The notes: a model not told the origin generated them from the letters alone. A DNA stretch of 64,000 bases from Eledone cirrhosa (GCA_964016885.1 OZ024742.1:86428001-86492000); one strand, 5' to 3'; shown: positions 14,474 to 56,771, counted from the stretch's first letter. Numbers and translations: made by a program.

Positions 14474-14521
<48 letters not shown>

Positions 14522-14666: not shown

Positions 14667-14716
<50 letters not shown>

Positions 14717-14861
14717 ATAATAATAAATTTGAAGACTAAAATCCAAAGAGGGATCAATAAGGATAAATATATATCAAATATATAAGAACCGTAGAGTTTC
14801 AGAAGATCCCGTTAAGGGTGAAAGCAGCGATTCTTTGCTTAAACTTTAATCTGTTATTTTA

Positions 14862-14912
<51 letters not shown>

Positions 14913-14931
14913 CAATATATAGTAAGAAACA
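14454..14931. repeat. Long palindrome (~240-bp arms) centred on (TA)n, abutting the 5' end of Naiad A
   Basis: TGTTTCTTAC...TTATTACT(AT)n AGTAATAA...GTAAGAAACA; the arms read as reverse complements. Confidence 0.9.
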
Positions 14932-14932
14932 T

Positions 14933-15964: not shown

Positions 15965-16054
15965 CTAGCTCCTACTCCCGTAGTAGAGCACTTTCCGACC
16001 CTACCACGCCGTATCCAGACTTTTCCGCTAAGCTCAATTCATTTCACCCGCACC

Positions 16055-18207: not shown

Positions 18208-18473
18208 ACTAGGGCTATAACACCCCAGTTGCCGATTTTGCAATGGGTAACCCCTGCTTGCCAAGGAAGACGTAAGATCTTCTTTGTATTCTTTTATCGC
18301 ATCCTTTATTTCCTTCCCCCCCTCTCCTTTGTCCTTCTACCCCAGCTCTTCTCCTTTGTCGGCGTCTTTTCTCGCCCACCCGAGGCTGCCCTTTGGCCCC
18401 ATGTAGCCTTAGTACCCCCACTCCCCCCTCCCCTAGTCTTTGATAGATTTGGCGGACTCCGCCCTTTATAGCA

Positions 18474-19501
18474 GTTGGCTTAGACCCCGGATACTTGCCC
18501 CCCTTTTCCGACCGCTCCCACTATTCTCTGTGCCCTCTATATTTCTTAGTGGCACTTATGCCTTATTTTTTCGTTTCAGTATTTCTTGCTTCGCTTTTCT
18601 TCTGGGCGGGGTGGATTCTGAACTTATTTCTCCGTATTCTACCTTTATTTCGTACGAACTTTCATGTAGCTTGTTTTAGATCTTTTAGAGTTAGCATTAG
18701 TATATATTTTTCCCGGGACTCAGAATTATTATGTCGTACAAGTTCACTTTGCTGCACTGGGTCGTTGCTGGCCCGGGATGGAAACCTTTATTGTTTATTT
18801 CGTGGTAGTCTCTTTAGTATTTTGGCCCCTTTTGTTGACCAGTCACCGTATCATTTACGTACTTATACCTCTTAAAAGGGTCCTTGCCTAATTCGTCCCA
18901 CCTAGTTCTTTTACTTATTTCCTTATTTATTTATTTATTTATTTATTTACTTCTTTCTTTCTTTCTTTATTTTTTTCTTTATTTTATTCTCGCCTAACAA
19001 TAGCCTGACACCTAGGTCGTAGAATTTAATTTTTTCTTTACACTTATTTGCTTTTCTTCACTCTCAGTATTTTTTCTTTCCTATTTTTACCCCCCATTGT
19101 TCTACCTACCGTTCCGACTTCCTCCCCCTCCCCCTCCCCTGTATCTTCTTTGACCTCATGCCCAGCTGTAGCTGGCACTACCAACGCTTGATTGGGTCTA
19201 CTCCACCCCCTCCCCTCTTTCTCCTACTGGCAGGTTTAGCCACCATCTCCCCTACTAATTTGCAACCACAGAATTACTACTGATTTTTGACAATCACTTT
19301 GACCATATATGGAATTACCCCTTGAGAAGATCGGCTATTTAAATACCAGGATAAATGTTCATTTAGTCCAGAATTAGCCGTCGAAACGGCTTGAGCTCAG
19401 CTGTCGGGGTCTTACTGGTTCCTATTACCCACTCTACTACCTCAAGTATTGAGTACTTTGGTGCGTTATGGTCCACCTGGTTCCTTACCACATTTCCTTC
19501 G

Positions 19502-20409: not shown

Positions 20410-22555
20410 TTGGTTAAGGTAAATAAAGATGCTGAAGGAAAAACGAACAACAATCAGTTTGAATCTTTGTTTAAATCAAGAAAAAATCCTCCATACAACA
20501 AACTTCTGGGGGTTTTTGAAACAGAAATGCTCGGCATAATTAAAAAAATTAAATTTAGGAAAAACCCATATATATATCACCAATACCTCAGATCTCTAAC
20601 AGATAAAATCACTGAAATAAAAAAATGTTAAATCTGACAAAACTAATATTTCATATGGGATAGGCAAAGATGAATATAACGACCTGATTCTGAAAGAACT
20701 TAGGAAAAATTACAAAAAAGCCCCGGCTGATGATCTTACTGAAATTAATGAAGAAGCCTATAAATTAATTACCAATCTAGGAATACAAGGAAGAACTGAG
20801 CCATTCTGACCTAGACAGCCGAGGATTAACCTGAAGGATCAAAAAATAAACTTTAAGGAAGAGATGCCAGTTAGACTGATTGCTCCATCGAAATCGGATA
20901 TAGGAGTAATCAGTAAAAACATCATAAATTGAATATTACCCACTCTTCAATTGAGATCTAGTTTGAGCTTATGGAAAGATACAAATGAGGCCATTGAATG
21001 GTACACGAATATTGAAGATAAAAAAAACTATAAATTCATTCAGATGGATAATACTAGCTACTATTCTTCTATAACAGCTAAACTTCTAAATAAGGCCGTC
21101 TCATATTCTTATAAGCACACTGATCTAACCACAAATGAAATAGATATAATGTTAACAGCCAGAAGAACTCTCATTAACTTCAATAACGAATTTTGGACAC
21201 GCTCAGATAGAGATAGAAACTTTGATATCACTATGGGGGCACCTGATTCCGCGCAAATCACATATCTTCTGGGAATTTTCATATTAAACATGATAAATAG
21301 AAAACTGTCGGAGATTGCCGGTGGTTTATATAGGGACGACATTTTATTTACGGTGGTCAAACACAGCAATATAGAATTAAATAGAGTTAAGAAAAGTATA
21401 ATAGAATTCTTTAAAACGTACGACCTTAAATTAGAAGTAGAAAATGGTACCAACATAGTTAATTTCCTTGACGTTACTTTAACTTAAACACTGGCTTCTA
21501 TTACCCTTTTCATAAGCGTAATGAAAACTTAAATTATGTTAGTAACTATTCAAATCACCCTAGATCTGTAAAAAAAAGTTATAGTAAATAGTGTGCAAAG
21601 ACGTATTAATAAAATATCAGCTAATAAAATATATTTGATAAAAATGTTGAATACTACAACAACGCGTTAAAAAGAGCAGGATATATGAATAATATAGAAT
21701 ATGTAGATAATACAAATCCAAGTATTATTCCTAATAATAATAATAAAAACAATAACATATGTAAGAGTGACTCTAATAATTATAACTGAAACACACATAC
21801 GCTAAATAAATCGAAAATACAAACTAGATCTAAACCACTCATATGGTTTGCACCCCCTGCTTCGGTCGCAGTTAAAACAGCAATTGCAAAACTATTCTTT
21901 AAAGCTCTTGACACCTCTTCCCCTACTCAACATAAATACCATTCCATTTTTAATAGACATACCATTAAATTCGCAAATTGTACAACCAGTAACATGGCCC
22001 CCCAAAACGCCAAATTAAACGCCAAAATCCTAAAACCAAACCAACATAATGATCATAATAATAGAGTTAACATTAATGATACTAAACCAAAATGTAATTG
22101 TAGAAATAGAACTAATTGCCCTTTGCAAAATAATTGTGTAGATAGTAATTTGGTTTATAAATGCACCGTAAAATCTGATAAACAAACATACAATTACATT
22201 GGATCATCCTCGTCCACATTCAAAGCTCGATTTGCGAACCATAAATGCTCATTCTCGAACTCTAAGAGGATATCATCCACATCTTTATCACAGATCATAG
22301 GGTCTTTAAAAGAGAAGAATTTAGAATACTCCATTCTTTGGACAAAACTTCGGAACTATGGAATTTACCGCAACTTTAGTGTTATCACATAACTGCCCGC
22401 TCTGTACAATGGAGACCCTGTTGATTATTAATAATTATGAGACCCTAATTAACAAAAAAAGTGAATTATTCTCTAGTTGCCTCCATAAAGCTACGTCGAC
22501 TTTTTTAGCCTCACATGAAACGAGAAAGAAAGAAACAATTATACCAAACCAATAA
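20410..22555 (+). pseudogene. Degenerate Naiad-type PLE ORF, family C
   Basis: FKSRKNPP, VRLIAPSKSDIG, FIQMD, FDITMGAPDSA, GLYRDD, VNFLDVTL, CNC..CPL..C, YIGS..FKAR..H and CPLC..E, with many stops and frameshifts. Confidence 0.88.
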
Positions 22556-31634: not shown

Positions 31635-34600
31635 TCTATTTATTAATTTCACGAACGTCAGTATTCCGTGTGTCATAATTCTCGATTATCATTGCTTCAT
31701 AGGTTTCAAACGACTGTGCCCACCTCAACGACGCCAATCTGAAATTAATATGCATAATGTCAATGAGGGAGTGAGAGGGGAGAGTGTGAACGCTGTGTTC
31801 AATAACTATTAACATGTGTGCGTGTGTATGTACGTGCGCGTATGTTTATGTGTGTGTGCGTGCGTGCAGCGTTCCACAGATACTAAAAACTATCAACGTT
31901 TGTGAGTGTGTGCGTATGTAAATTTGCGTGCGTGTACGCGTTTCCATGCGTGTATGTGTGTGCGTTTCACAATCGCCACGCAGTTTATCTGTCTGTGTGC
32001 CTGTCTGTCAGTATAACATACACGGAGTTGTAAATGGAGTAAATAGAGACCTTTCTTTACATTGACGGACATCTTTTATATTTATTATTGTATCAATACT
32101 GATAATAAAAGCAATTCGACTTTATCAAACAGTGAACTACATCGGCGACGGCGTGCAGCCAGCAATGAAGAAAAACGGGCCGAGCAGCGCCATCGGAACG
32201 CAGAACTTCAGAGGCGAAGACGTGCCGTCATGAATGAAGAGGAGCTGGCTGAACAACGCCAACGAAACACTGGAACCAAGCAGCGACGGCGTGCTTCGGT
32301 GGTTGAAGACAAACTGGCTGAGCATCATCAGCAGATGGCCAGAAATCAGCAACAACGGCGTGCTGCGATGGATAAAGAGGAGCTGGCTTAACAGCGCCAG
32401 CGCAACAGAGAAGTTCAGAGAATCTGTCGACAAAGTGCTCCTCATTCCAGTAAAGAAGCTAGAAGGCGATATTAAAAATGGATCATGGCAACCGTGTCAT
32501 TTTCAGATTGGTGGACGAGCAGAGTGTCCACATTGTGTAGCATTGTTTTGGAGGCACGAAAAGACGTGGACCACAATGTGCTGTCATAAAGGAGCAGATC
32601 AACTAGAACCCTTGCGAATGCCGGATGATGAGGAGTCACCGGAGTTTAACATACTAAGTATGTGGGGTGATCAAAGAGACCGAGGTAGATTACTGCGCAA
32701 ATATTCGCGGCAATTAACAATTCATTAGTTTTAGCATCGCAGAGAGTTAGTGAGATGTGTGAGAGTGGAGCATGGCAACCCAATGTAGTCATTCAAGGCC
32801 GTTTGTATCATTGTATCGGTAATTTAGATATTACCACAGGAGAGAGGCCTCGATTCGCTCAAATTTAGGTTAATGAATCGGAGGAGGATATCAGGATCGG
32901 TTGGATGAAGTTGCCGGGAAATATAACTGAACTTGAACGCCAAATGTTAAGTGATTTGATCCGTGATTTGCAATCAAGGCTTAGACAGTGTAATCCTTAT
33001 GTTATGGATTTAATGTTGGTGGCTGAATTGCAAAATGTTCAGCAGCAACCATTGGTCGTTAAGGGGCTGACCCAGTGCCAATGAATCAACACGAACAGCG
33101 ATATAATGCCCCTGAAGGATTTCGTGAAGTTGCTGTGTTGATGCCCAGGAGGTGGCAATAGACACAATAATTCGATTCGCGACTTTTACGCGTTCCATTT
33201 GAACGAGAGGAATCAACAGAGAAATGCGCTATTTCAAGCCAGCAGATTGTTCCAGGATTACTGTTATATGGCATTCGCAAAGATCGAAAATCAAAGGCTA
33301 AAGTATATAGCTACACATCAGCAACATATCAGAGCTGAATTGTATAATAATATACAGGATGCGATAACAGCCGATGATGCCAATTACAAGCAAATTGCTC
33401 GACGCATCATTTTGCCATCGTCGTTCATCGGCGGCCCGAGATATATGAACATTCGCTATCAGGATGCAATGCATGTTGTTTGAAAGTTTGGAATGCCAGA
33501 TGTGTTTATAACGGTTACATGCAATCCTGAATAGACTGATATTAATGATGCACTTTTACCAGGGCAACAGCCAAAGGACCATCCTGATATTGTGGCAAGA
33601 GTTTTTTCAAAGGATATCTGAAAAAGATAATGGATGATGTGGAAAAAGAGGGAATCTTTGGAGGTATAGTTGCTTTTACATACGTAATTGAATTCCCCAA
33701 AAGAGGATTGCCACATGAACATTTGCTTATAATTTTATATAGAGATTGCAAATTGAGATGTGATGATGATGTCGACAGCATTGTTTGTGCTGAACTGCAT
33801 GAGAATGAGGCACTACGCAACTTGGTGGCAAAGTCAATGGTGCACAACCAATGCGGAGTGGCAAATCGGAAAGCGCCTTGCATGAAACATGGCCAATGCA
33901 GTAAGCACTTTCCGAAATCTTTTGTCACGAACACTTCCTGGAACTATGTGGATGCTCATCCCTCATTTAGAAGACGGTCGCCTGCAGATGGCGGTTTGGT
34001 CGAAAATATAAACGGTTGACAGGTTACAAATCAATGGGTTGTGCTATACAATCCATATTTGATTATGAAGTATCGTTGTCATATTAATGTGGACATTTGT
34101 AGCTCAGTGAAAGATTACAAATATATACTCAAATATGTTTACAAAGGTCATGATCGGGCAATGATCAATGTCAGGAATGAGGAGGCGAACTAAGGAGATG
34201 AAGTTGACAGGCTCCAGGATGTTCGCTAGATTGGATCTAGCTTGTTCGATTTTGTTCTGAATGAACGCAAACCCAGCGTTATGAAACTTACGGTTCACTT
34301 AGAGAATAGGCAAATGGTCAGTTTCAAGACACTAGAAGAGGTGTCGAAATAATTGCTAACGCACCACCTCCTAAGACGGAATTTACTGAATGGTTCAGGC
34401 ATAATAGAGAACATGCTTTGAACCCGGATCATAGGCGACTCTACTGCGATTTCCCTTCGCACTATACGTGGGATAAGAAGGGAAAGAAATGTAATGATAG
34501 AAAACAAAAGTTGAGATTCATGACAATTGGACAGGTTTGTAATGTCCATCCTGCATCTGGTGATGTGTTTTATCTCCGAATTCTGTTGCATAATGATTTT

Positions 34601-37600
34601 TCGAGAGCTAAACAGAGCTTCACTGATTTGAAAACACTCAATGGCGTGGAATATGAAACATACCAGGCTGTGTGTCAGCATCTGGGACTCCTTCAGGATG
34701 ACGCTGAATGGAATAACGCCATGGAAGCTGCAGGAACAACACAGATGTCAGCTCAAATAAGGCAGTTGTTTGTCACGATACTAGCATTCTGCAATTCTGC
34801 CGATCCAAGAGAGTTATTTGAACGTCATTGGGGAATTATGGCTGATGATTTTAGGCATCATCTTCAGGTCGATGATGAATATTTGATGAAAGTTATTGTT
34901 TTGCTCAATATTGAGCAACTGCTTGAAGTTCATTTCAAATGTTAAACAGATTTCAATTTGACAATTCCTGATGAAGAAATGCGGCAACGTGTCATAGCAT
35001 TGAACATGAGATTGCAGCTTAGACGGTTGCCACTCGATCGGAGGAAACTATTCCAGTTTGATCCACTGGAACAGCAACGTATTGTGAATGAACGTATGCC
35101 AATGTTGACCCAATCTCAGAGAAAATTGGTCGATCGCGTTCTCCACTCGATTTCAACTAATGAGCAACTTTGTGCTTTCATAGATGCTCCAGGAGGCACC
35201 GGAAATACATTCTGTTTCAACACTATGTTATCGGCAGTCAGAACTCAGAGGAAGATTGCTCTCCCTGTGGCCACCAGTGGGATCAATGCCACTTTGCTGA
35301 GTGGTGGAAGAGGTTCCACTCATGCTTCAAGGCTCCATTGGCTCCGGATGAGTTGAGTGTCTGTAACATTACAGGACAAAGTGAACTCCCGGGCCTTATA
35401 CGCAATACGTCTCTGATTATTTCGGACGAGGCTACAATGGCACACATATATTTGCTGGAGGCATTGGACAGAACATTGAGTTATATCTGCGGTAGTGACC
35501 TGCCATTCGGTGGTAAGACTATCGTTTTTGGTGGCGATTTCAGACAGGGGCTACCAATTGTTAGGAATGCTCAAAGAGCGTAAATTGTCGATGCATGTCT
35601 GAAAAAGTCCCCGTTGTGGCGCCATTTCAGAGTTTTCCGATTACACGATAATATGCGACTTCGTATGTTCGGGCAACACGAAGAGGCTGAGACATACGGC
35701 CGATGGTTGATGCAGTTGGGAAACGATGAATTGCCACACGTTGGTGATAATCAGACTGTAAGACTCCCAGACCATTTGGTCATGCCACTGGACCGCCAAG
35801 CATTGATTGACTGGGTGTTCCCTAATTTGAATGCTTTTTGGCAGAATATCTCCTGGATATCGGAACGCGTTATTCTAACTCATTCGAATGCAACGGTCGA
35901 TGAAATAAATTCACAAGTAGCCGGAATGTTTCCTGGAGAGGAATGGTTCACCGTCAGTGCGGGAGCAATATGGAAGTTCCGACTGTTTGTCTGAATTCAC
36001 TTCAAATACCCGGATTTCCCCCACAAATTTTGAAGTTGAAAAAGGGTATTCCGATTATATTGCTTCGAAATATCAAACATAAAATGGATCTTTGATTTGG
36101 TACCAGATTGATTGTTGAGAGAGTGATTAACGGAAGAGTTTTAGAAGCTAAACTCCCAGGCAGAGAGGAATCGGTTCTCATTCCGAGGATCATGCTGAGA
36201 CCAAGTGAAGATCTGATGCCATTCATGTGTCAAAAGCGACAGTTTCCCGTCAATTTGGCTTTCTCCATGACTATCAATAAGGCACAGGGACAGACTTTCA
36301 AGCGAGTCGGTGTCTACTTGAATGATCCAGCATTCAGTCATGGGCAACTGTATGTTGCTGTATCTCGAGTGTGCGATCCTGATGTTATAAGATTTGCAGT
36401 TGATACCACTAACAGAGGAACAACCCTGAATATTGTCTATAATGAAGCTTCGAGCTGATGTATGCATATCTTTAATGCTATCAATAAGCGACGTAAATGA
36501 TTCGGACATTGTTGTCCTTTGATCAGTATTGTGAACTTTGACAGAGTTATCATCTATGTTCAATGTCATTTAATGTCGTTAGGAGCAATAAAAACAAACA
36601 AGTATTGGTAAAAATTGCTCTCACTGCTATGTTGCGCAATAAATACCAACAAGTATTGGTAGAAATTGCATTCACTGCTATGAATATTCGACGTAAATGA
36701 TTCAGTCATTGGTGTCCTTTGAACAGTATTGTGAGCTTTGACAGAGTTATCATTTCTGTTCAATATCATTTATTGTCGATAATGAGCAATAAAAACAACA
36801 AGTATTGGTAGAAATTGCCTTCAAATGTAACGCTTCTGATTGCAGTGGTAATAACACCTCATCATATGCTGAGTCTGGCAAAAAGTTTGGTGCATATGGC
36901 CGGCCAGGTATAGAGTAATATTGTAAAACGATTCTATGTTCGAAGTAGAAGGATCCGATATTTGGAGTTCAAACCAGTCCACCTCCCCTAGTTGAACTCT
37001 GGGCAATATTGACTGTCTATTCCTCTGTGGCTACGAGCCTGGAAATTAGTGAATACATTTTTGTGTCATATAATTTGTTGTTTTATTATTATAGCTGACC
37101 ATTTATAGATAAGCATGTTATCCATATCCATATTAATTTCCATATCCATATCCATATCCATATTAAAATGTTATCCATAAACCATTTCAAGTAAATAGGG
37201 ACCTTTTTTACATTGACGGACATCTTCTATATTAATTATCTCTATCTATATCTACATACATTATAAATGATTGGAACTTCAATCATCCTTTTGAGAAACG
37301 TGGAACAACCACGTCTATGCAATGACACACGTTTCACAGTCAGGCAGAAGATGAAGTATGTCCCAGAGGTCACTATTCTAGGTGGGAGTAGCACCTAGAA
37401 TTGTTCATATACTATGCACAAACGGTACCACGAAGAATCTGGTATATCTGGAAGATTTATTAAACTGTTTTTGGTATCACACAGACACCAGGGACTCGCC
37501 TCATACTGTAACCAGACAAAAATCCAATTCAGTCATTTTCTCTTTTACCTGTCTTCTCTTATCATCTGTTTACCCGGGCGAAGCTGGGTACATCAGCTAG
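31635..37600 (+). mobile_element. Full-length (decayed) Helitron
   Basis: 5' TC; 3' hairpin CCCGGGCGAAGCTGGG then CTAG followed by T; Rep/Hel coding remnants. Confidence 0.92.
32062..36458 (+). pseudogene. Helitron Rep/PIF1-helicase, disrupted
   Basis: Rep motifs FITVTCNP, YVIEFPKRGLPHEH and KYVYKGHD. Helicase motifs DAPGGTG, ISDEATM, GGDFRQGLP, RQFPVNLAFSMTINKAQGQT and FSHGQLYVAVSR. Many stops and frameshifts. Confidence 0.93.
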
Positions 37601-37915: not shown

Positions 37916-38685
37916 TTATTAGTCTGTCTTTTTAGATAGATACATAGCTATGAGGTCGCGCCCTTATAATATATGTATGTATGTCTGACTGTCTGCATTA
38001 AGACATACGACACAAATTGTTCTCATTGATGACGTATTTTCTTCGCTATTTTCCATTCATTGCCAGGGAACCTCTTCACGAACCTAAGTATCGTCTTCCT
38101 GTTTTCCTTTGGTTGCAACGTATTTCGAAATATATAATTCTGCGTTCACAGACTGATTTTTTTAGTTTCAGAAGATCCCGTTAAGGCGAAGCACACGTTG
38201 TAAGCAATTTCAATATTACTGCTGCTACATAGGACTCCCATTACCACTGAAATTTCATCTTTGCGTTCTGCATTTCCATCCGCAGGCCAACATGGAATGT
38301 TCTTCATAGTAGTCAGACTATTGAGGGAGAAACAGATGGTCTCGAATTTACTGTCCAAAAAAACCCATTGACAATAACGAAAACCGCTTACATCAACCCA
38401 TAATGGTACATTGTAGGTCGTTTTAACCCGTCTTTTATTAATGAAAAAACTTCTTGCCAATAAACATTACCTCTTTGTGCGCCAATCATCTAAGCGTAAA
38501 CCTAAAAATACCAACTAAACGGAGGGTTGACAAGAACGATGGCGAATGAAACTTCGAGGTAAGCAGTTTCCTCCCGAGCTGTTAGTTCACGCGGTATTCT
38601 CTGCTACACCTTTTCATAATAATATCGAACAACGTACTGCTGGTCATTCCTTCCGCCAAAAGACGTACAAAGCGGACATGTGCAT

Positions 38686-38992
38686 TTAAGTAGCAGCCGT
38701 ACTATCAGTGAGAAATGAAATTTCATTTTTTTCCATTTATCGTTTTCGGTACGCCCGTCCGTCTAACTCACTCGATATGCAAATTAGACTGCTCAGCCTT
38801 TAATATGCATCAGGAAAGTATATACTTTCAAACGGTCAATCACCATACGTACATATATATATGCGTGCATGTATGTATGTATATACATACTACTGTACGT
38901 CTGTATATATATATATATATGTATGTACATATACATACTTACATTTAAGTATCACCAGCACTAAGAATGTGAAATGAAATTTCATTTTTTTC
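38686..38992 (+). mobile_element. R1 copy with internal deletion removing the HHR; terminally redundant
   Basis: TTAAGTA.CA.C.G.ACTA...GAAATGAAATTTCATTTTTT occurs at both ends; octamer at 38777. Confidence 0.65.
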
Positions 38993-39007
38993 ATATATAT
39001 ATATATA

Positions 39008-40255
39008 TTGTCCTGGATATGGCATTAAACTACATCCAGTGGCAAGGCTCTAGTTCGGGAGTTCAGGAGTTGAGGGGAATGTGGAGTTACTCCTTAGTTG
39101 TTATAATTCCCAGGTCTGCTCTGGCCCGGAGTCGTTGTACCTGTTAGGGCCCAATTTATGGGTTAAATAACTACCTTATACGAGTGGCGCCGGTAAGGTA
39201 TTGTCAGCCATTGAACAGACATATGGAGAGTCTATCTAACAGCACAAGGGTTAAAGCCCCTAATTACATTGTCAAAGAGAAGTCTGGTCGTTATGACTCT
39301 GCTGGCTTAGAGCCACAGGGAGGGCCAGTGGATGATGGATCAGCTGTCTCTGAGACAAATATAAAGAATGCTGTTTTGTCCTATAGAAGAGCCATCAAAA
39401 TGGACACTTTGAATGTGAGGACTATTCGGACGCTGGAGAAGAGAGAGGAGTTGGGAAATATGTTCGAGGAGAGTGGTATACATATACTTGCGATCTAAGA
39501 ACACAGGATCCTACAGGATGGGCACGTGAGGAGTGTGCTGATTTGGAAGATGAGCCAGTTCATCACCACATCGGCAGTGAGGAACATGACCAATGCTGCA
39601 GTGGGAGGAGTGGGTTTTGTTTTCAGCACAAAAAGCAGTCTATTGGTGAGGGAAATAATACCTGTCTCCTCGCGAGTGTTGAGGGTGACCTTCCATGGAA
39701 ACCCAGGACTGACAGTCATCTCAGCCTATAGTCCAACCGAGGGAGACAGTGATGTGAGTGCGGAAGAGTTCCAAGAGGAGGTGCGTAGAGCTGTCAACAC
39801 CACACATTCACACAACATCCTGCTTGTTTTGGGGGACTTCAATGCATATCTGAGTAAGGATGGCAGTGAAGATCCTTGCTGGTACTTCCATAACAAGACC
39901 AACCGAAATGGAAGACTACTGAGAGACAGTTGTTATGAGTGATGTCCGGGTGAGTTTAAGAAAGAACAAGGTTCAGCCCCAGAGATCAATCTATGACTGG
40001 GGAGCTTTCAAGGAAGATGATAAGCTACAGGAGAGGTTCACAGTGGAAGTGAGTAACGGGTTCAGTGCTCTGTGTGGAGAGACAGAGGATAGAGAGATCG
40101 GATGGACTGAGGAGAGTGTGACGAGGAGGCACTGGCACTTCACCAATGCAGTGGCGGAAGCAAGTGAGACCCTGGTGCCGAGGAGAAAGAACAAAAGGAA
40201 GCACGTCAGTTCTGCAGACCCAAAAGTGTGTGCAGCCAGAGAACACCTGTTAATA
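39008..40255 (+). mobile_element. RTE LINE 5' portion (UTR + APE endonuclease + linker), disrupted
   Basis: TLNVRT, ILAI*EHR, GGVGF, VISAYSPT, LVLGDFNA, TNRNG.LL. Confidence 0.88.
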
Positions 40256-40627
40256 TGCAAGAGGAAAGTATATACTTTCAGACGTTCAATCATCTGGCAG
40301 GAAAGTATATGGTGCTGACGATAGCTAATAATCTTGAAACTAGTACAGCGTTCCTTTGTCAGTGTTGAACAAAAGGGCAACGATGGTTGCTAAACACTGT
40401 ACGGCTCAATTCGTGTTGTTTGTTTACAAACAAACCGAGCATTATAATAAATGTTCGGTGAATGCATACCTACATATATATATATATATATGTGCATGTA
40501 TGTATTTATATATACATACTACTGTACGTCTGTATACATATATGTATGTACGTATGCATACTTATATTTAAGTAACAGCCGTACTAAGGGTTAGAAATGT
40601 AATTTCATTTCATTTTTTCCATTTATA
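40250..40627 (+). mobile_element. Retrozyme-like family R1 copy
   Basis: Homologous to 54065-54290 (reverse complement) and 38845-38990. Confidence 0.7.
40309..40351 (+). ncRNA. Minimal hammerhead (R1), partly degenerate
   Basis: ATGGTG-CTGACGA-TAGCTAATAATCTT-GAAA-CTAG-TA-CAGCGT, with mismatches in stems I and II. Confidence 0.7.
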
Positions 40628-45908: not shown

Positions 45909-46030
<122 letters not shown>

Positions 46031-46082
46031 TAGAAAGGATTAATATAAAATGAAAGTGCTTTTTTTAAAAAGGAATTTATTA

Positions 46083-46202
46083 GGTATTGACATATGTTTC
46101 TGTAACAGACGGAATACCTATGTATCGCTGCTTGCGTAATCATATACTGTTAGCAAGTATTCGATAGCAAATGTATAATCAGTTGTCACTTCTTCAGAGA
46201 TT
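46083..46202 (-). ncRNA. HHR-like motif in Naiad B 3' pLTR
   Basis: CTGAAGA-A-GTGACA...TGTTAC-A-GAAA-CATATG-TC, with a long stem II and palindromic minimal stem III. Stem I pairing is weak. Confidence 0.6.
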
Positions 46203-46669
46203 TTGGATAAACTGGATAAAATCAGAAAAATTGAAGTATTTATATTAGTAATAGAGGAAGAAACAGAGGGGATAGTATATGACAGATGGTAAATTAATTT
46301 ACTGCTAAACAAGTATATAATGGGTTTCTAATGAGAATACCATGAGTAAATCTAAATAAGAATTTTGGGAGTGCCAATTTTAATCTCTACTTGACCAACT
46401 GGACAGTCGACAGGGCTGGTCATTTGGTGCAGTAGTATTAATTATAAAGTGTCAATTGGGGAAGGGGGAGATTTCGATTGCTACTAAATAACATCAATGC
46501 TAGTAGCCAGCTAGTATATGCATTAGGGAATTGAATCAAGAAATCAGAAATCTCATTTTATCTATAGCAGTTTGTATTAAAAGGTAAATAATAGAAGAGT
46601 TGATAGAATTAAGACTAATAAAGAATGTTCATATCTATTTTGACAATCAAACGGGGATAGAGACAGGCG

Positions 46670-49003
46670 TTCAATCCTGGTAGTATTTATAATATGAAAA
46701 TGTAGATTTTAAGCGATGGTTACAGTATAACGATCGCTCTATTCTGTTATTTAATAAAATGTTTTTGGATTTCATAATACAAAATAATTCTACATTACAT
46801 AATTTACAAAATTCCTGTCCATGGGAATATGGGGGGGGGGGGGGGGGGCGCAGCCGCTATTATATACCATTTTAGCTGAAAATGTTGGTTATTTTCACGC
46901 AGCTGCCAAGCCTTGTCTGCGAGTGTTGTTATATAACGCTGGTCTTCATGTTTTATCGAGTAACGATGTCTATAAAGGCGTGATTTGAAGGAGGTGGCTG
47001 TAGATCCTACATAGTACCACTTCTGTCTATCCGATTCGATAGTACATTTGTATACGATGTTGCGTTCAAGACACTGATTGTTCAACGGACACATTCCTGG
47101 TTGGACACAGTTGCAATTATAATTTTGCGTTGTTGTATTGCCATGGATGGGTTGATGAGGTTGCTTATGTAGGACAGGATGTTGTTTGTTGTTTTGTGAT
47201 GTTATAGCTAATGTTTTACGTGTATTGTTATGTGTTGGAAGGCGTTTATACAACCGTTTTGCGTTAAGCTTTTTTATATGTTGTTCAATATTAGGGGCGG
47301 TTGAATATGAAAGTCGAATAGTGTTAGGGTTTAAGATTTTATTATATTTATGTGATGTTGGAAAGTGCTTTTTAACTAATCGAAAGAATTTTGAGGGTAG
47401 ATTGGTTTTAATAGAGTTGTTATAGACCGGGTTGTACCAAATATACTCCTTACATCGCCTTCTGTTTGGTGGTGTGCGACTATTATTGTGTCTATTGCTG
47501 TAGTGTATGTATGGTGGTGATTCTGTGCTATTTCTACTCCTATGGGATTTATTTTGGGTGTTTTGGTGATCTTTGACTATATACTCTATATTATCTAGGT
47601 GACCGGCTTTCCTAAGTGCATCATCATAATATTCGGCATGCTCTTTGAAGGTTTGTTGGTTGGACGACTGGCGGGAGATTCTAAGAGAAACATTTCTAGG
47701 GATGGATTTAATTATAGAGAGTGGATGGTTAGAACTCGTATTTACATATTTAAGGTTCTCATTTAGTTTATGGAACGGTTTAATCGTATCTGTATTGAGA
47801 TTCAAAGTAACATCAAGGAAATTGACCTCTTTGAGGTTCTATTGAAATGTAATATTTAATCCTAGTTCCTTAAAAAGCTTTCTGATATTTTTACGCATCC
47901 TTTCTAAATTCTGTTTATTCATATGCTTAACTAATAGGAGCGCATCGTCACGGTAGATTCCACCGTGGAGATCCTTGAATTTTCCTTGTAATCTGTGGGT
48001 GATATAAATTCCCACAAGATCTGTTACTTCCGCCGAATCATTAGAACCCATAGTGATATCAAAATTAGAAAGTCTATCTTTGCGAACCCAGTAGCTATCA
48101 TCGAATTTAACTATAGTTTTCCTCGCTTCCATAATAATTTTAATTTCAGCATCCGTAAGGTCGGAATTATCCTTAGCGAACGAAAGAGCTTCATGTAGAG
48201 TATCAGGTGAAATTGAGGAATAATATTCATCAATATCAAACTGAATAAATTTTGATTTTTTCTCATCAGTAATGTTATTAAACCATCTTATTGCTTCATG
48301 GGTGTTACCCCATAGTTTAATCTCTACTTTAACCTTAACTTGGGGGGATAATTCTGTCTAGTATATATTTGCTAATTTTGCCTATATCAGATTTAGAGGG
48401 GCATATAAGTCTAATATTAGGGTTAGTATCGAAGTTTACCTTGTGGTCCTTCAGGTTGAAGGATGGTATAGCTGGTGTTAAGGGTTGCGTTCTATCGTCA
48501 ATACAAAGTGTTTTAACAATATCACATGCCGAGTTGTTGATGTTTTTAAGTGTAGCTTCATTAGTTTTCCTGTATTTTTTATGCAATTCCTTACGGATGA
48601 AGTTATTGTAAGTGTCCACATCCATGGTATATACGTTTGATGTTTTGTCTGCTCTAACAATAATTCCATTGGCGTTTTTTAGATTATTGAGCAGTGCCGT
48701 GATGTCATTCTGTAGTTTATTGTTCTTCCGTTTTGTAAATTTGATCTCCATGATCATATCCATTAGGTCTTGTCCAAATGCATCCAAAAGTGGGTTTGAG
48801 GGTGGGTTCTTGTAAGATTTAAATCCAAATTTATCCTTGTTAAGATCCGATGTTTGGTTTATACGGCTTTTGTCAAAATGGAATGTTTTCCATCTGATTC
48901 GTCGAATAAAATGATTGGTCCTTCGTATCATACCTAGAATATATTCCCTTTTTGCATGAATAGGTATGTTTTTTAACGACATATCCAATTGGTGCCTTTC
49001 CAT
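46670..49003 (-). pseudogene. Naiad B RT + GIY-YIG ORF with frameshifts (~48345, ~46840) and an in-frame TAG at 47839
   Basis: LDMSLKNIPI, IRLICPSKSDIG, FIQFDI, FDITMGSNDSAE, GIYRDDAL, CNC..CPL..C, YVGST..FKSR..H, FCKLC..E. Confidence 0.9.
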
Positions 49004-49211
49004 TTTAGAGACGTATGCTGAATTAGTTGCTCAACTGTATAGGAGATTAATAAAATTTCAGGTTATCAATAATGTAGTGATAATATATCGTTACGTTAGA
49101 GATGAACAGCGTACGTGCAGGTTTGCTCAACGAGTATAAATTATATTCCGGAGATAATGTAGAAAGGATGAATATGAAATGAAAGTGCTTTTTTTTAAAA
49201 GGAATTTATTA

Positions 49212-49331
49212 GGTATTGACATATGTTTCTGTAACAGACGGAATACCTATGTACCGCTGCTTGCGTAATCATATAATGTTAGCAAATATTCGATAGCAAA
49301 TGTATAATCAGTTGTCACTTCTTCAGAGATT
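49212..49331 (-). ncRNA. HHR-like motif in Naiad B 5' pLTR
   Basis: Copy of 46083-46202. Confidence 0.6.
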
Positions 49332-50167
49332 TTGGATAAACTGGATAAAATCAGAAAAATTGAAGTATTTATATTAGTAATAGAGGAAGAAACAGACGGG
49401 ATAGTATATGACAGATGGTAAATTAATTTAATGCTAAACAAGTATATAATGGGTTTCTAATGAGAATACCATGAGTAAATCTAAATAAGAATTTTGGGAG
49501 TGCCAATTTTAATCTCTACTTGACCAACTGGACAGTGGACAAGGCTGGTCATTTGGTGCAGTAGTATTAATTATAAAGTGTCAATTGGGGAAGAGGGAGA
49601 TTTCGATTGCTACTAAATAACATCAATGCTAGTAGCCAGCTGGTATATGCATTAGGTATTGAATCAAGAAATCAGAAATCTCATTTTATCTATAGCAGTT
49701 TGTATTAAAAGGTAAATAATAGAAGAGTTGATAGAATTAAGACTAATAAAGAATGTTAATATCTATTTTGACAATCACACGGGGATAGAGACAGGCGTTC
49801 AATCCTGGTAGTATTTATAATATGAAAATGTAGATTTTAAGCGATGGTTACAGTATAACGATTGCTCTATTCTGTTATTTAATAAAATGTTTTTGGATTT
49901 CATAATACAAAATAATTCTACATTACATAATTTACAAAATTCCTTGGCACTACCATTGTTACCATCGCTTTCCTCTAGCCATGGGGCTTGGAGACATGAA
50001 CCGAATGCTAGCATTCTATTTTATATCAAAGTGAACTGCTATTTCTAATGGCCATCTTTTCACCCCTTGATAATGTGTGTGTGAGACACGTTGGCTGGGT
50101 CCTTCTGACAGGAAGGAAAATATTGATTCTTTTTAGCTTCCCGTCCCCACGTAAAATTTGTAAATCA

Positions 50168-50459: not shown

Positions 50460-52272
50460 GTACGAAGTATATGAAAAATTTGATACGGAAAATTAATTCA
50501 GAATACCTACTGACAAAAAAAAAATACTGATATACGAGAAATTAAAGCAAAGATACCACTAAGAAATATAGAAAGCACGGAAAAGGGGCAGCCATCGGAT
50601 AAGAAGGTAAGTCTCCGGGGTCTAACACATCTGCTATAAAAAGTGGAGTCGGCCAAATCTATCATAGAATAGGGGATGGGGGTGGGGGTACTGAAGCTAC
50701 AAAGGACCGAGGGGCTGCCTCGGGTGGACGAGAAAGTGAAAAGGACGACGACAAAGAAAGAGAACTGGGGCTGAAGGACTAGGGAGGGATGGGGGGAAGA
50801 AGGAAATATAGAGGAAGCGATAAAAAGATATAAAAGAAGATCTTACGTCTACCTTTGCAAGCAGGGGTTACCCATTGCAAAATCGGCAAGTGGGGTGTTA
50901 TAGCCCTAGTCTATGGTCATTATGGGGTTTGAGGGCGAGGTAAGTCCTAAGCAATCTGTGTTTACATGCAGTTACCAGTTCATCTTTCTTGTTTAGGAGT
51001 TGGTCAGTCGAAAACAGCATTTGTAAAGTTTCCTCCGAGCATAAATTGCACGGACGGCGTCCTCCCGTGTAAAAGTTGGCTCTGGACAGTAAGCTCCAAG
51101 TGAGATCATAGGTAATATTGTTCTCCTTGAGGCCCCATATGTGGCCTGAAAGTGTAGTGGCGTGACGCCGGGCCGGGTTTCGGAGGTATGTCTGTGTTGG
51201 TATAGCCGGGTCTTGAAGTCACATGCGGTTAATCCTATATAAGCTTTGTTGGAGGTGTCCGTCCTCACGTTGCACTGGTAGATCACATTACAATCTCTGC
51301 ATCTGTTGTCGAGGGGGAAATTGGATCCATCGGGACAGTTGCACCTCCTGGACGGCTCTCCACTGTATTTAGGTTATTTCTAAAATAGGGGTTGAATTTT
51401 TTGTTGGTAGAGGAGACGATGTTTTGTGCAAAGTTTGGTGTGGTGCTGTAGGAAGGTTTGATGGTATTTTTGTTAATTATGTTGTGGTAGCGGTGTTGTA
51501 GTCGGAACTGTTTTTCAATGAGCCTAAAGAAGATTTTCCCGATAGGAGTTGTCACCTCGGCGTTGTGGGGAGGATTGTACCATGTTACATTGCGTGAGCG
51601 GCGGTGTCGCCTGCTGGTTCCGCTAATGGAAGCTGGACAGTAGGATATTTCCTCCCAGAAACCACTCCGCTTGAGGGCCTGGTTGTAATAAGGCGCATGT
51701 TCCTCGAATATCTGCTCATTAGCGGACAAACGAGATATGCGGAGGGAGATGTTTTTAACCAGGTTATTGGTGATGTTCCTAGGATGGTTTGACCGGCGGT
51801 GGATGTAGTGCAGGTTGTCGTTGGGTTTCCTGTTTGGGTAGTACAGATCATTATCGAGGTCAAGTGTAACATCCAGGGAGTTTACTCGGGTCAGGGACGT
51901 TTGTAGGGTTAATTTAAATCCCCAGTTGCGAAAGAAGCTGATTAATTGTTTACGGACCCGATGTGTACTACTGGGGTTGTTCCATTTAAGGGTTAGGAGC
52001 CCATCATCACGGTACAATCCACCGCCGAATGCAGGAAACATATCGGTGAGTTTAGCTATTAGGAATAATCCTATAACATCTGTGACCTCAGCCGAATCCG
52101 TCGCGCCCATGCTGACGTCGATGGGTGAGTCAGGAGCTCTCTTTATCCATTTGCAGTTGTCGAAAAGTAGGACTGTCTTCCTGGCGTGGAGGAAGATGTT
52201 TCTTTCCTGGTCGGTGATGGGCACAAGTGTTTTGGCGAAGTCCAAGGCAGCCGTAAGTAGCGGAAAGGTAAT
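50460..52272 (-). mobile_element. Older, 5'-truncated copy of Naiad A (RT C-half, GIY-YIG, part of 3' UTR)
   Basis: ORFs 51283-52245 and 50993-51286 are close paralogues of the 16055-18207 protein, and the 3' UTR resembles 18210-18700. Confidence 0.9.
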
Positions 52273-52725
<453 letters not shown>

Positions 52726-52776: not shown

Positions 52777-52834
<58 letters not shown>

Positions 52835-52987
52835 CACATATGTATACATATGCACATGTACCGAGCTTTTCACTAGACACTTTACAGTGAGTGTCCAGCT
52901 AGTCTGTATGTAAACAGACGAACCGGGTTTTAGAGTCATACGAGTTTTCAAGGAAACACATTTCCTCTATTCTCCAGAGAGCCAGAC

Positions 52988-53040
52988 AGGAATATTGGAC
53001 TAGTTTCGATGTTATTACATCTCATCAGCAATATATACCT
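52988..53040 (-). ncRNA. Minimal type I hammerhead ribozyme
   Basis: ATATTG-CTGATGA-GATGT-aata-ACATC-GAAA-CTAG-TC-CAATAT, extended by the flanking inverted repeat ATTCTCCAGAGA(A)GCC. Confidence 0.92.
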
Positions 53041-53081
53041 ATCTTTCCGGCTTCTCTGGAGAATTGTAAAAGCACATATCG

Positions 53082-53140
53082 TTATATGCTTTTTCTATGA
53101 AAATCAGTAGTGGGCAGACTAATTTGCATAGAACGTGAGT
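53082..53140 (-). promoter_or_regulatory. Octamer + TATA-like module upstream of R2 HHR
   Basis: ACTCACGTTCTATGCAAATTAGTCTGC...ATTTTCATA...GCATATAA; the motif is shared with R1 and R3. Confidence 0.5.
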
Positions 53141-53146
53141 CATTGT

Positions 53147-53975
53147 ACGGTCTATCTTTGCGAACCCAGTAGCTATCATCGAATTTAACTATAGTTTTTC
53201 TCGCTTCCATAATAATTTTAATTTCAGCACCCGTAAGGTCGGAATTATCCTTAGCGAACGAAAGAGCTTCATGTAGAGTATCAGGTGAAATTGAGGAATA
53301 ATATTCATCAATATCAAACTGAATAAATTTTGATTTTTTCTTATCAGTAATGTTATTAAACCATCTTATTGCTTCATGAGTGTTACCCCACAGTTTAATC
53401 TCTACTTTAACCTTAACTTGGGGGATAATTCTGTCTAGTATATATTTGCTAATTTTACCTATATCAGATTTAGAGGGGCATATAAGTCTAATATTAGGGT
53501 TAGTATCGAAGTTTACCTTGTGGTCCTTCAGGTTGAAGGATGGTATAGCTGGTGTTAAGGGTTGCGTTCTATCGTCAATACAACATTTTTTAACAATATC
53601 ACATGCCGAGTTGTTGATGTTTTTTAAGTGTGGCTTCATTAGTTTTCCTGTATTTTTTATGCAATTCCTTACGGATGAAGTTATTGTAAGTGTCCACATC
53701 CATGGTATATACGTTTGATGTTTTGTCTGCTCTAACAATAATTCCATTGGCGTTTTTTAGATTATTGAGCAGTGCCGTGATGTCATTCTGTAGTTTATTG
53801 TTCTTACGTATCTCTGAAGAAGTGACAACTGATTATACATTTGCTATCGAATACTTGCTAACATTATATGATTACGCAAGCAGCGATACATAGGTATTCG
53901 GTCTGTTACAGAAACATGTGTCAATACCTAATAAATTCTTTTTTAACAAAAGCACTTTCATTTCATATTCATCCT

Positions 53976-53979
<4 letters not shown>
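53147..53979 (-). mobile_element. Naiad B internal RT fragment (53147-53808, minus) with inverted pLTR (53809-53979, plus)
   Basis: Near-identical to ~48070-48730. The inverted segment carries the HHR-like motif (53809-53927) and ends CTTTCTA(TA)n. Confidence 0.9.
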
Positions 53980-54015
<36 letters not shown>

Positions 54016-54197
54016 GTATATATATATATATAAATTACCATATATATATGTATATATATATATATATGTACGTATCAGTTTAGCGAACGTTTATTATAAC
54101 GCCCGCTTTGTCCGTTTGTAGACAAGCGAACGGCCTGATTTATGCCATACGGTGTTAAGGCAACCACGTCACCTTTTTGTTCAACACTGACACAGGA

Positions 54198-54240
54198 ACG
54201 ATGTACTAGTTTCAAGCTTGTTAGCTATCATCAGCACCGT
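54198..54240 (-). ncRNA. Minimal type I hammerhead ribozyme (R1)
   Basis: ACGGTG-CTGATGA-TAGCTAACAAGCTT-GAAA-CTAG-TA-CATCGT; GUA triplet. Confidence 0.88.
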
Positions 54241-54273
54241 ATACCCTTCTGCCAGATAGTTGAACGTTCGAAA

Positions 54274-54333
54274 GTATATACATTCCTTATGAAAATTAAC
54301 GGCTGAGCAGCCTAATTTGCATATCGAGTGAGT
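54274..54333 (-). promoter_or_regulatory. Octamer + TATA-like module upstream of R1 HHR
   Basis: ACTCACTCGATATGCAAATTAGGCTGC...ATTTTCATA...GTATATAC; also present at 38766-38826 (+). Confidence 0.5.
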
Positions 54334-55434
54334 TCAGTCGGCCAGGCGTACCGAAAACGATAAGTTGTAATATAATGAAACGAAATTTCATTTCTCAACT
54401 TTTTGTACGGCACTTACTTAAAAGTAAGTATGTATACAGTAAGTATGTATACAGTTTAAAGGGCTTTGCAAATTGAAAATAGCGATAGCTAATTCATCCG
54501 CGTGATATGTAGCAACGAAAGAACGTACTAGTGTATAAGAACTGTATATATATATAGTAATAATATATATATGTAACCCATTAGCAACCTAGCATCACGT
54601 TTATTCTCATATTTACACATATCTTTTGCCTCGCTGTGACCCGTCTATTTCGTTCTTACTGCTTCCTCTTTCTCTGTACCTTTATCCTCTCTAGCAGTCA
54701 CTCTCTCTGTTAGCCTATTCCTCACCCTTCACTCACTCACTCTCTGTTACTACCTCTCCTCCTCCTCCTTCTTCCCGTTTGACAAGTGCGTAATTCTTTT
54801 CTTTCGCACCCTTGGTCATGCAGGTCGCTTTTTTTCTCTCTCGTCTACGATTTCACAGAACTTACGTTCATCGAATTCACAGACTAGATCCCTTCTTCCT
54901 CCCATTAGACCTGTACAGAATTCCTTCCTTGCTCACATTCCAACCAGGTTTGATGGTCTTTATTCTCTCTCGTTCACGATTTCACCGAACTTATATTCAT
55001 GGAAATTTGGGACTTGACTCCTTCTTCCTCACTTTTCGTTGCTTCGCCATCTTTGTTTGTTTACACTCTCGTGTCCCCTTTATTTACGTGTCCCAACGAC
55101 TTTTCTTAGCCGTTGCTCGCACCAAGCGGAGGTATATGGTCTTTAAAGCGATGAAATACCAATGATGGTTGGGAGATCACTGATGAAGGACTAACTTTTT
55201 CATATATATATATATATAGGTATATATGAATGTATATATATTGTATTTTGCACTACATTGTATGCTTAATTAAAAGCATTTTGATGACCTTACGCTATTG
55301 TTTTTAAGTAGTGACTATTTCACTTACTTCTTTTGTCAACAAACGAAGGAAGATAAGCTGACAGATCGCGGTTTCATACTGCGGGTATTCCTCAGAGCTT
55401 AGCTTGTGTAAATTATGAATGCTGGATTCTTATA

Positions 55435-55720
55435 GAGTTCCAGTAATAATCAGGAACTGATTATACAGAGCGGTTGCCGGTACAGCAAAAATTGAAAATA
55501 GGCACACTAGGTACTATCTCAAAGAGTTTCCAAGGATGGTTAAATAAGTTTAGTACAACCCCGCTTTTTGGAACGCTTCAAAAGGCATTCTTGCTGGGAA
55601 CAGGAAGAACCCTCCGATACGTCCTGACTGTAATAGGCTGCAAGTATTGGCTTGATATTCAATTCAACAAACCTTCCAGTTAATTAACATAAATGACCGA
55701 GACTCAAATGATAATAATAT
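55435..55720 (+). mobile_element. R4/Dong LINE 3' end
   Basis: IGTLGT...LQKAFLLGTGRTLRYVL followed by a short UTR and TAA-like tail. Confidence 0.7.
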
Positions 55721-55744
55721 TATATGTATATATGTTATTATTAC

Positions 55745-55853
55745 CTGAGTTCAAATACCGCCGTAGTTAATTTTGCCCTTCATCATTACGGGGTCGATAA
55801 AATAAAGTACCAATAATGCCCTGGGTAATTGCTGGCCTTGTGCCAAATGTAGA

Positions 55854-55858
<5 letters not shown>
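55745..55858 (+). mobile_element. 5'-truncated SINE (main family)
   Basis: B box through tail. Confidence 0.8.
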
Positions 55859-55912
<54 letters not shown>

Positions 55913-56095
55913 GTGTGTGTGTGTGTGTATGGGTGTGTGTGTGTTAGTGTGTGTGTAGGTGTTAGTGTGTGCGTGTGTGCGTGAAACTTGGACTGTCCTA
56001 TCGTGTATAAAGACATACCATTTTCTAATTTGTAGGCATGGAAACATGTCAGAAATTACCAATTTCCTCTTAAATTGAAAAAAAAATCATACAGT

Positions 56096-56144
56096 AAAAT
56101 TTAATCGATTTTCGGATTTCATTCATCTCTCATCAGGAAATGTG
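56096..56144 (-). ncRNA. Degenerate minimal hammerhead (family R3)
   Basis: CACATTTC-CTGATGA-GAGAT...ATCC-GAAA-ATCGAT-TA; palindromic stem III; stem I imperfect. Confidence 0.55.
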
Positions 56145-56185
56145 TATATCATTCAATCAACCACTAGGAAACATGATTATGATGG

Positions 56186-56243
56186 GTATATATACCCATT
56201 CACCCATAGAATTATTCTGAAATTGACGCAGTAATTTGCATAT
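56186..56243 (-). promoter_or_regulatory. Octamer + TATA-like module upstream of R3 HHR
   Basis: ATATGCAAATTACTGC...GTATATATAC. Confidence 0.4.
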
Positions 56244-56771
56244 AATTAACGTTTATGGTAATTACTCTATATCTTAATACGCACTGGTGATTCGTGAGAG
56301 ATAGTTAAGCTCAATGCTGGCGAAGAAGCTCGGATGAGATGTTAGCGGCTCCGAATAAGTCTAACGCTTGTTATCTTGAAAATAGGACCTTTAATTTTTA
56401 ATCACGCATAAATATATATGTATATAAATGTACACTCACATATTTTTATATATATGTAAATATTATTGTATACAGCTGCTTATGATGGGGGCATTGTTTC
56501 AAGGACTTAGGTGGTGATTGCTATAGATTTTTTTAGTAGGATCTCATCGCGTAATGTTCCTGCACATGGTCTACTCCAGATATAGGGTCGTTATATATAT
56601 ATGTTTGTGTATTGAAAAGTGAAAAGGAGAAAAAAAGTCAAAGATACATTCTTGATTAATTCGTGTCTCAGTGCGTAATGTTTTCTGTTAAAAAAACACA
56701 CGCACACACCCAGAGGCACAGAGGCACACACAGCTACGTTTAAATACGTACCAACCCCCCACCCAGACATA

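Follow-up and report, generated by a model that had tools for sequence, protein, structure and literature searches.

Hammerhead repeats in the window

The window, a stretch of 64,000 nucleotides of Eledone cirrhosa DNA (GCA_964016885.1 OZ024742.1:86428001-86492000), lies on contig C3 of a 3.0 Gb assembly in which (TA)n and (CA)n tracts are frequent; the DNA is approximately 64% AT. It contains copies of the hammerhead-bearing repeats R1, R2 and R3 as well as several Penelope-like open reading frames (ORFs). The relevant features are as follows.

52791-53149, minus strand: R2 retrozyme copy, 5'-truncated 20 nt upstream of its 12-mer, with a (TA)n tract at its end
53119-53130, minus strand: R2 12-mer TATGCAAATTAG, the octamer-containing element of host Pol III promoters
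53081-53088, minus strand: R2 TATA-like word CATATAAC, 41 nt from the start of the octamer (class with short spacing)
Near 53057, minus strand: R2 predicted +1
52969-53064, minus strand: R2 extended type I hammerhead, from folding; core start 53028
Between 52998 and 52997, minus strand: R2 predicted GUC cut, placed by hammerhead numbering
53150-53809, minus strand: fragment of a Penelope-like (Hydra-type) reverse transcriptase ORF, abutting the R2 5' end and 98% identical to window positions 48072-48731
53810-54070, plus strand: 3' tail of that Penelope-like family in inverted orientation, with (TA)n, forming the outer end of the composite insertion
53998-54435, minus strand: R1 retrozyme copy of about one unit, including an internal AT-rich tract
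54312-54323, minus strand: R1 12-mer TATGCAAATTAG
54275-54280, minus strand: R1 TATATA, 42 nt after the octamer start, with TCAG 26 nt before it
Near 54250, minus strand: R1 predicted +1, placed by analogy with the host TATA at -30
54187-54255, minus strand: R1 extended type I hammerhead; core start 54234; U-U at the base of stem II
Between 54204 and 54203, minus strand: R1 predicted GUA cut
56003-56251, minus strand: R3 copy of an old family, with a decayed hammerhead; core start 56136
56231-56242, minus strand: R3 12-mer with one mismatch
56188-56194, minus strand: R3 TATATAT, 47 nt after the octamer start, as in host U6 and MRP
Near 56164, minus strand: R3 predicted +1
38683-38998, plus strand: R1-type copy with the ribozyme deleted and the module intact (12-mer 38776-38787)
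40249-40626, plus strand: fifth copy, of R1, with the ribozyme kept (core 40315) and truncated inside the module; absent from the preliminary description

A preliminary description of this DNA had proposed that each hammerhead is preceded by an octamer and a TATA-like word at similar spacing. The 9-mer TATGCAAAT was indeed found at 53122-53130, 54315-54323 and 56234-56242 on the minus strand and at 38776-38784 on the plus strand, and CUGAUGA cores are present at the three starts listed. The distance from octamer start to core is 101 nt in R2, 88 nt in R1 and 105 nt in R3, equivalent to the 81-98 nt given previously if counted from the other end of the octamer; the TATA-like word follows the octamer by 33, 34 and 39 nt, respectively, and ACTCAC and ATTTTCATA are common to R1 and R2, as had been reported.

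The hammerheads were assigned to type I by pattern and folding in R1 and R2 and at the family level in R3, and have a long bulged stem I, a stem II of 4-5 bp and a palindromic stem III of two to three pairs; they had been described as minimal, which is true of stem III alone, the motifs as a whole being extended. The U-U at the base of stem II in R1 is also seen in the weakly active axolotl motif HHR_Amex2 (PMC7229834). Among the window copies only R2 matched Rfam (Hammerhead_HH9, E 4.9e-05, 34.9 bits, under the gathering score of 52), and the window copy of R3 is old, with broken stems and 77-83% identity to its best relatives. Circular monomers fold far better than shuffled sequences (z -7.5 to -9.1, 25 shuffles each).

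The earlier assignment to retrozyme-type tandem repeats was borne out by the type I hammerhead units, the tandem arrays and insertion ends of retrotransposition type. Tandem units of R1 measure 422-502 bp and those of R2 466-469 bp, with as many as 30 units joined head to tail, while for R3 a partial repeat was seen at one locus only. The units are non-coding with a GC content of 0.35-0.38, under the 45% retrozyme criterion. R1 and R2 are young, their best 40 matches being 98-100% identical; R3 is old (mean pairwise identity 76% over 24 copies).

Families carrying the module

The three repeats had been regarded as different elements, but R1 and R2 proved to be alignable sister families, with 65% identity over 357 columns (E 2e-11), rising to 80% in the 49-nt module and 75% in the ribozyme. 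CTGC after the 12-mer had been listed as a feature of all three; this does not extend to R3, where CTGC is peculiar to the window copy and the family majority (24 copies) differs.

Genome-wide, TATGCAAATT followed by CTGANGA 74-100 nt further on gave 27,976 matches compared to 7 for the reversed pattern, these matches being copies of a few families and not independent events; the first 100 places listed comprised 55 R2, 43 R1 and 2 others. In the window alone the octamer-containing 9-mer occurs 5 times against a shuffle mean of 2.0, which is within chance (9 of 100 shuffles reach 5). A 19-mer of the R1 ribozyme had 27,876 genome matches (control 0), and a pattern excluding typical R1 and R2 copies had 682 (control 3) and exposed the further families F265, F266, F283, F293, F294, F295 and F301. 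A locus designated F300 (C1:11.30 Mb) was judged a chance match, having 2 mismatches and no TATA. In a scan of 24 of 64 metagenome parts, 1 of 117 matches had hammerhead-like stems, and that one lacked a TATA.

Downstream sequence is common to F266, F293, F294 and R1, and a linker is common to F265 and R3, while the R1 and R3 groups have the module and ribozyme alone in common. As R1 and R2 share ancestry, the module-bearing families likely had one or two origins, not three. The module was absent from nine other hammerhead families (approximately 30 distinct copies) met incidentally in the examined DNA, and would thus mark a clade rather than hammerheads in general. These incidental hammerheads formed 24 clusters, with the module in the R1, R2, R3 and F293 clusters; other singletons were truncated R1 or R2 copies, and the filter missed decayed copies. 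The module has a fixed position, and the positional enrichment predicted in the preliminary description holds for the linkage of 12-mer and core, but not upstream of hammerheads in general.

Conservation of the module

The module is retained across families whose flanks are unalignable (module z 1.8-10; upstream flank near 0 for R1 against R3). Within R1, 86 copies were picked on ribozyme sequence only, 62 of which span the module, and the octamer is intact in 52 of these 62 distinct copies. Variants common to at least three R1 copies fall in about 8 of 48 module columns compared to 38 of 94 flanking columns (Fisher P 0.004), a comparison in which the copies are related, not independent, and the counts were taken from printed alignment marks. 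A changed octamer was found in one array, and the loss of 8 nt between TATA and ribozyme has not prevented one R1 subfamily from spreading.

In 5 of 7 element sequences folded (R1, R2, R3, F283 and F293) the 12-mer is paired within a local hairpin, so RNA structure may explain part of the conservation, including that seen within R1. The pairing partner lies downstream in R1, R2, R3 and F283 and upstream in F293, and F294 has none. Since the partner varies by family while the 12-mer is constant, the comparison favours a sequence-level role for the 12-mer.

Match to host promoters

The 12-mer motif was fixed before any host gene was inspected. Host genes were taken as the best U6, U6atac, RNase MRP, U1, U2 and U12 matches in the genome. 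Five distinct host Pol III promoters were compared, belonging to two solitary U6 genes, the tandem array of U6 genes, the best U6atac match and the sole RNase MRP gene. All five carry TATGCAAATTAG with at most one mismatch at -77 to -79 and a TATA near -30, 46-48 nt after the octamer start, an arrangement expected by chance at about 2e-5 per gene. The 12-mer was found in none of ten Pol II snRNA promoters (five U1, four U2, one U12; within 100 nt), where the best fits had 4-5 mismatches. Those ten promoters all have TCA or CCA (YCA) at -56 to -58 plus a TATA-like word near -30, and YCA was found in none of the five Pol III promoters.

Among the 20 best U6 loci, 6 of 9 distinct upstream regions carry the 12-mer; of the other three, one is an array copy disrupted by an insertion and two are solitary copies without the 12-mer. 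It was absent from all 12 weaker U6 copies and all 8 weaker U6atac copies inspected, as expected of retrocopies; three of six further U6atac stretches were not located. The host 12-mer may be a POU site or half of the PSE of this animal, and we take its variants ATGCAAAT, ATGCTAAT and ATGGAAAT to resemble POU sites.

Spacing classes

With TATA set at -30, the 12-mer of R3, F265 and F283 lies at -78/-79, which is the host U6 register, whereas in R1, R2, F266, F293 and F294 it lies 4-6 bp closer. From octamer start to TATA the distance is 47 nt in R3 and 48 nt in F283 (46-48 nt in the host), compared to 41-43 nt in R1, R2, F293 and F294. By downstream homology the short-spacing families form one clade. 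Of 12 family representatives, 11 have YCA between -55 and -57 (chance 0.08 each); the word is short, and the count is weakened by four TATA anchors set by hand on decayed copies, three of the representatives also being R1 subfamilies. Of the 8 additional representatives, most of them single old copies, 3 have a clear TATA word. In their sequence the elements thus look like hybrids of host Pol III and Pol II snRNA promoter features. In insects, polymerase choice is linked to the PSEA sequence and to a fixed spacing between PSEA and TATA (PMC1761439).

Insertion ends and the predicted mobiliser

Insertion ends were collected at loci chosen by similarity or pattern, mostly at the start of contig C1, and R1 pieces consisting only of microsatellite were dropped. 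The 5' ends (143 of R1, 60 of R2) are evenly spread over the unit, and 5' inversions are present. Transcription had been proposed to begin just upstream of stem I, a start that gains no support from these ends: no excess was observed at the predicted start in either R1 (14 of 143, P =0.21) or R2 (5 of 60, P =0.52), and 5' ends were rejected as a marker of start or cut site. Of the 3' ends, 56 of 141 in R1 and 23 of 61 in R2 fall in a cluster 27-49 nt upstream of the octamer, at a patch rich in T and behind a hairpin common to both families. Nearly all of those in the cluster run into AT repeats (51 of 56 and 23 of 23); most other 3' ends are at the internal AT-rich tract.

The order in unit-length copies is promoter, ribozyme, body, end. 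As most R1 copies hold the promoter upstream of the ribozyme (the 62 of 86 described above), the insertion template appears to be a multimer or circle, and the earlier proposal that the promoter is regenerated by tandem or circular copying agrees with this count. Random 5' ends, inversions and 3' ends clustered on (TA)n together fit Penelope-like retrotransposition.

Several Penelope-like ORFs in the window have RWK/RWR, DKT and CxCX5C motifs, with a nuclease at the C terminus, in agreement with the Hydra clade. Pfam returned nothing for any of the four Penelope ORF pieces, so the Hydra-type assignment is based on motifs matched by eye. The label 'Naiad' was dropped for these elements because the endonuclease is C-terminal. 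The R2 copy in the window is joined to 660 bp of one of these Penelope-like ORFs and to the inverted tail of that family, between two (TA)n tracts; for this single case a template switch in one insertion event would be the simplest reading, with an insertion accompanied by deletion as the alternative. Similarity of the 3' tails to the two window Penelope families was not significant (32-412 of 500 shuffles reach the score; window elements only), and the module was absent from all five stretches of window Penelope pLTRs scanned.

Polymerase and proposed cycle

Every monomer contains T4-T7 runs. Before the next promoter or ribozyme, R1a has T4 twice, R1a2, R1b and R1c have runs of up to T6-T7 and R2 has T5, and in R3 a run of T4-T9 lies approximately 15 nt after the cut site. 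A unit free of T5 or longer runs to its end was not found in R1a2, R1b, R1c, R2 or R3; R1a has T4 only. As the RNA must cross these runs to carry the promoter, Pol II or dual use is argued for, and the polymerase would most likely be Pol II or work in a Pol II/III dual mode, with leaky Pol III possible. The compact Pol III promoter proposed earlier thus stood as regards its match to host U6, U6atac and MRP promoters, but not as regards the enzyme, given the internal T runs, the shorter R1/R2 spacing and the Pol II snRNA-like word at -56.

Taken over both polymerase readings, there is a strong probability that the module is a working snRNA-type promoter inside the retrozyme unit. We lean, by a little over an even chance, towards retrozymes that use a host-type upstream element and TATA as their own snRNA-type promoter in a cycle of Pol II or dual-mode transcription, circle formation and Penelope-like insertion. 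In such a cycle, the promoter in one unit would start RNA approximately 16-30 nt before the ribozyme core, and the polymerase, most likely Pol II or in dual mode, would continue past T4-T7 into the next unit. Two ribozyme cuts would free a 420-500-nt monomer holding the promoter of the next unit, which would probably be circularised. A Hydra-type Penelope reverse transcriptase/endonuclease would then prime at nicked (TA)n on the pyrimidine-rich site 27-49 nt upstream of the 12-mer; with one or more rounds of copying the external promoter would be regained in new insertions, only those with two ribozymes becoming new sources.

The main competitor, to which we give about half that weight, is a genuine Pol III type 3 promoter; most of its RNAs would terminate at a T run just ahead of the following promoter, and the few that leak past it would supply the multimer or circle. 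It accounts for the restriction of the 12-mer to Pol III genes in this animal (5 of 5 compared to 0 of 10), for the exact U6 spacing and pyrimidine|G at the predicted +1 of R3-type families, and for the first T4 or longer run of R1a and R2a, which lies approximately 350-370 nt past the start, at the main 3'-end cluster. However, R1b and R1c end beyond a T6, R2b has a T5 in mid-unit, the R3 run follows directly on the cut site, and host U6, U6atac and MRP genes terminate at T5-T7 or longer. Since pyrimidine-rich tails on (TA)n are also found at the ends of Hydra-type elements that lack the module, the clustered 3' ends may reflect priming rather than termination.

The 12-mer hairpins, nearly perfect in R2, the strong overall fold, the altered spacing in young families and the single clade of short-spacing families would also suit a relic of ancient host-promoter capture, kept as a rod-like RNA fold or reverse transcriptase-binding site, with RNA supplied by read-through from a neighbouring host or transposon promoter. 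This is rather improbable, in that structure alone would allow covariation, whereas the 12-mer is fixed while its partner differs among families, and the TATA and the TATA-YCA register are retained as well. Least credible, with very little weight, is a 12-mer serving purely as a POU-factor enhancer site (for example in germ line or neurons) beside TATA-like words arising by chance; the AT content of the DNA and the presumed POU-like host variants are in its favour, but the distance to TATA is fixed in host genes, R3 and F283, and an enhancer site needs no fixed register.

Discussion

The preliminary description cited no earlier account of such a module, and the principle was in fact already known from newts. 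The newt satellite 2 promoter is said to contain an octamer and a PSE; that of the schistosome Sm-alpha satellite is reportedly of the internal A/B-box type, unlike the upstream U6-type arrangement here. Newt satellite 2 is a hammerhead tandem repeat with a snRNA-type promoter within the unit, transcribed by Pol II (PMC2220036, on Coats, Zhang and Epstein 1994). It resembles the present elements in the placing of that promoter and differs in being vertebrate and Pol II-transcribed, against an invertebrate TATA module like that of Pol III genes, in several families and two spacing classes (PMC2220036). Sm-alpha likewise is a hammerhead repeat with its own Pol III promoter (Ferbeyre 1998, via PMC2220036). 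What appears new here is the match to U6, the conservation across several families and the shift in spacing, none of which was met in the literature; no U6-type promoter in invertebrate retrozymes was found in a search that was thin on subscription and pre-2000 papers.

Metazoan non-LTR retrozymes have units of 150-400 nt, and in the main text of their description 'promoter' occurs twice, both times for T7 (Cervera and de la Pena 2020, PMC7229834). They share with the present elements the type I hammerhead, short tandem units of low GC content in dimers to long arrays, a strongly self-paired monomer and coexisting Penelope-like elements; they differ in unit length (420-500 nt here) and in that no endogenous promoter is named in that main text, compared to the host-matched module here (PMC7229834). 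Retrozymes have been proposed to be non-autonomous Penelope derivatives mobilised by Penelope-like elements (bioRxiv 10.64898/2026.07.22.740005), in a text that from introduction to discussion has no promoter, snRNA, octamer or mollusc. In contrast to that proposal, the elements here have no clear homology to the window Penelope pLTRs, which themselves lack the module. Hydra-clade Penelope-like elements are described as targeting (TA)n, with truncated 5' ends, partial tandem copies and 5' inversions (Craig et al. 2021, PMC8557442), in all of which the present elements are alike, but they encode reverse transcriptase and GIY-YIG domains, whereas R1-R3 are non-coding. The human H1 compact type 3 promoter similarly has every element upstream of +1 and differs in belonging to a host gene that is non-mobile and without a ribozyme; its documented dual Pol II/III activity (PMC7949045) offers a route past the T runs.

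The host comparison also defines the U6-type promoter of this animal, with the 12-mer at -78 and TATA at -30, which is useful for guide-RNA expression; no U6 promoter paper for this animal group was found in the literature search. Retrozyme RNAs are abundant in animals, and their promoter is unnamed in the main text of PMC7229834 and from introduction to discussion of bioRxiv 10.64898/2026.07.22.740005; the module is a concrete, mutable candidate in an invertebrate. It illustrates how tandem or circular copying could give a retroelement the use of an external promoter, normally lost in reverse transcription, and the two spacing classes make polymerase choice testable.

A more speculative history, which we put forward tentatively and consider unlikely in its full form, is that a retrozyme lineage captured a host U6-type promoter and that its expanding families moved the element half a helical turn nearer the TATA, to a Pol II snRNA register. 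If true, these retrozymes would have an external promoter able to regenerate itself and to read past Pol III terminators, and would constitute a natural experiment on Pol II/III choice in more than 40,000 mobile copies; this would also explain, in general, how the circles of invertebrate retrozymes are driven.

Repeats and hammerheads of the window

Penelope-like elements carrying motifs of the Hydra clade, which inserts in (TA)n, were identified at four positions in the window, along with a further hammerhead and fragments of other repeats, as follows:

14843-19500, + strand: Penelope-like element, Hydra-clade motifs
19871, - strand: hammerhead distinct from the module-bearing ones
20933-22392, + strand: Penelope-like element, Hydra-clade motifs
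32047-36458, + strand: fragmented Rep/helicase-like ORFs, with Pfam helicase matches at 36096-36455; presumably Helitron-like
39148-40318, + strand: LINE-like fragments, which we take to be of the AP-endonuclease type; no Pfam match
45936-50100, - strand: Penelope-like element, Hydra-clade motifs
50898-52287, - strand: Penelope-like element, Hydra-clade motifs

The Penelope-like elements bear direct and inverted terminal repeats (pLTRs) and end on (TA)n. A hammerhead has been reported in Hydra elements, whereas none was present in the scanned pLTR stretches of two of those in the window. The 19871 (-) hammerhead sits upstream of the Penelope ORF at 20933 and is probably an inverted pLTR of that element; its family, with at least 11 distinct copies among the sampled loci, lacks the module (octamer-containing 12-mer and downstream TATA-like word) in those copies. 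A perfect, spacer-free 228-bp inverted repeat centred on (TA)n was also observed at 14464-14919, and an R1 copy at 40249 breaks into the LINE-like fragments.

Host snRNA genes

The host Pol II snRNA genes U1, U2 and U12 (loci L111-L135 and L308) were found to have a TATA-like word near -30 and an AATTA block near -90. The presence of TATA in the two snRNA classes is reminiscent of plants. Approximately 32 U6 genes lie in tandem at ~1.8-kb spacing (L093-L110; contig C19 of the same assembly, G000, 31.78-31.84 Mb); their U6 carries the ATGCTAAT variant and has a 5' stem region unlike that of the solitary genes. Many U6 retrocopies originate from this array.

Module variants and the predicted start

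In the R1 subfamily with 422-bp units (L196, L219, L221) 8 nt are deleted between TATA and ribozyme, and in the L196 array the octamer is replaced by ATGCATAT. The word ATTTTCATA, common to 53098-53106 (-) and 54287-54295 (-), almost matches the octamer's reverse complement; it could either pair with the octamer in a hairpin or serve as a second POU-type site in inverted orientation. Pieces of R1 and R2 adjoin within single loci (L010, L018, L038, L042), which may reflect insertion of one element within the AT tract of the other, or else a template switch. A module-like block is duplicated upstream of the 12-mer in F293, a further module-bearing family (L293, L297, L298); a related stretch, reversed, precedes a U6atac retrocopy (L240).

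In all five folds (R1, R2, R3, F293 and F294) the predicted +1 (TATA set at -30) falls 4-10 nt downstream of the point where outer stem I starts, so that the full stem I would be expected to form only in read-through RNA or in a circle.
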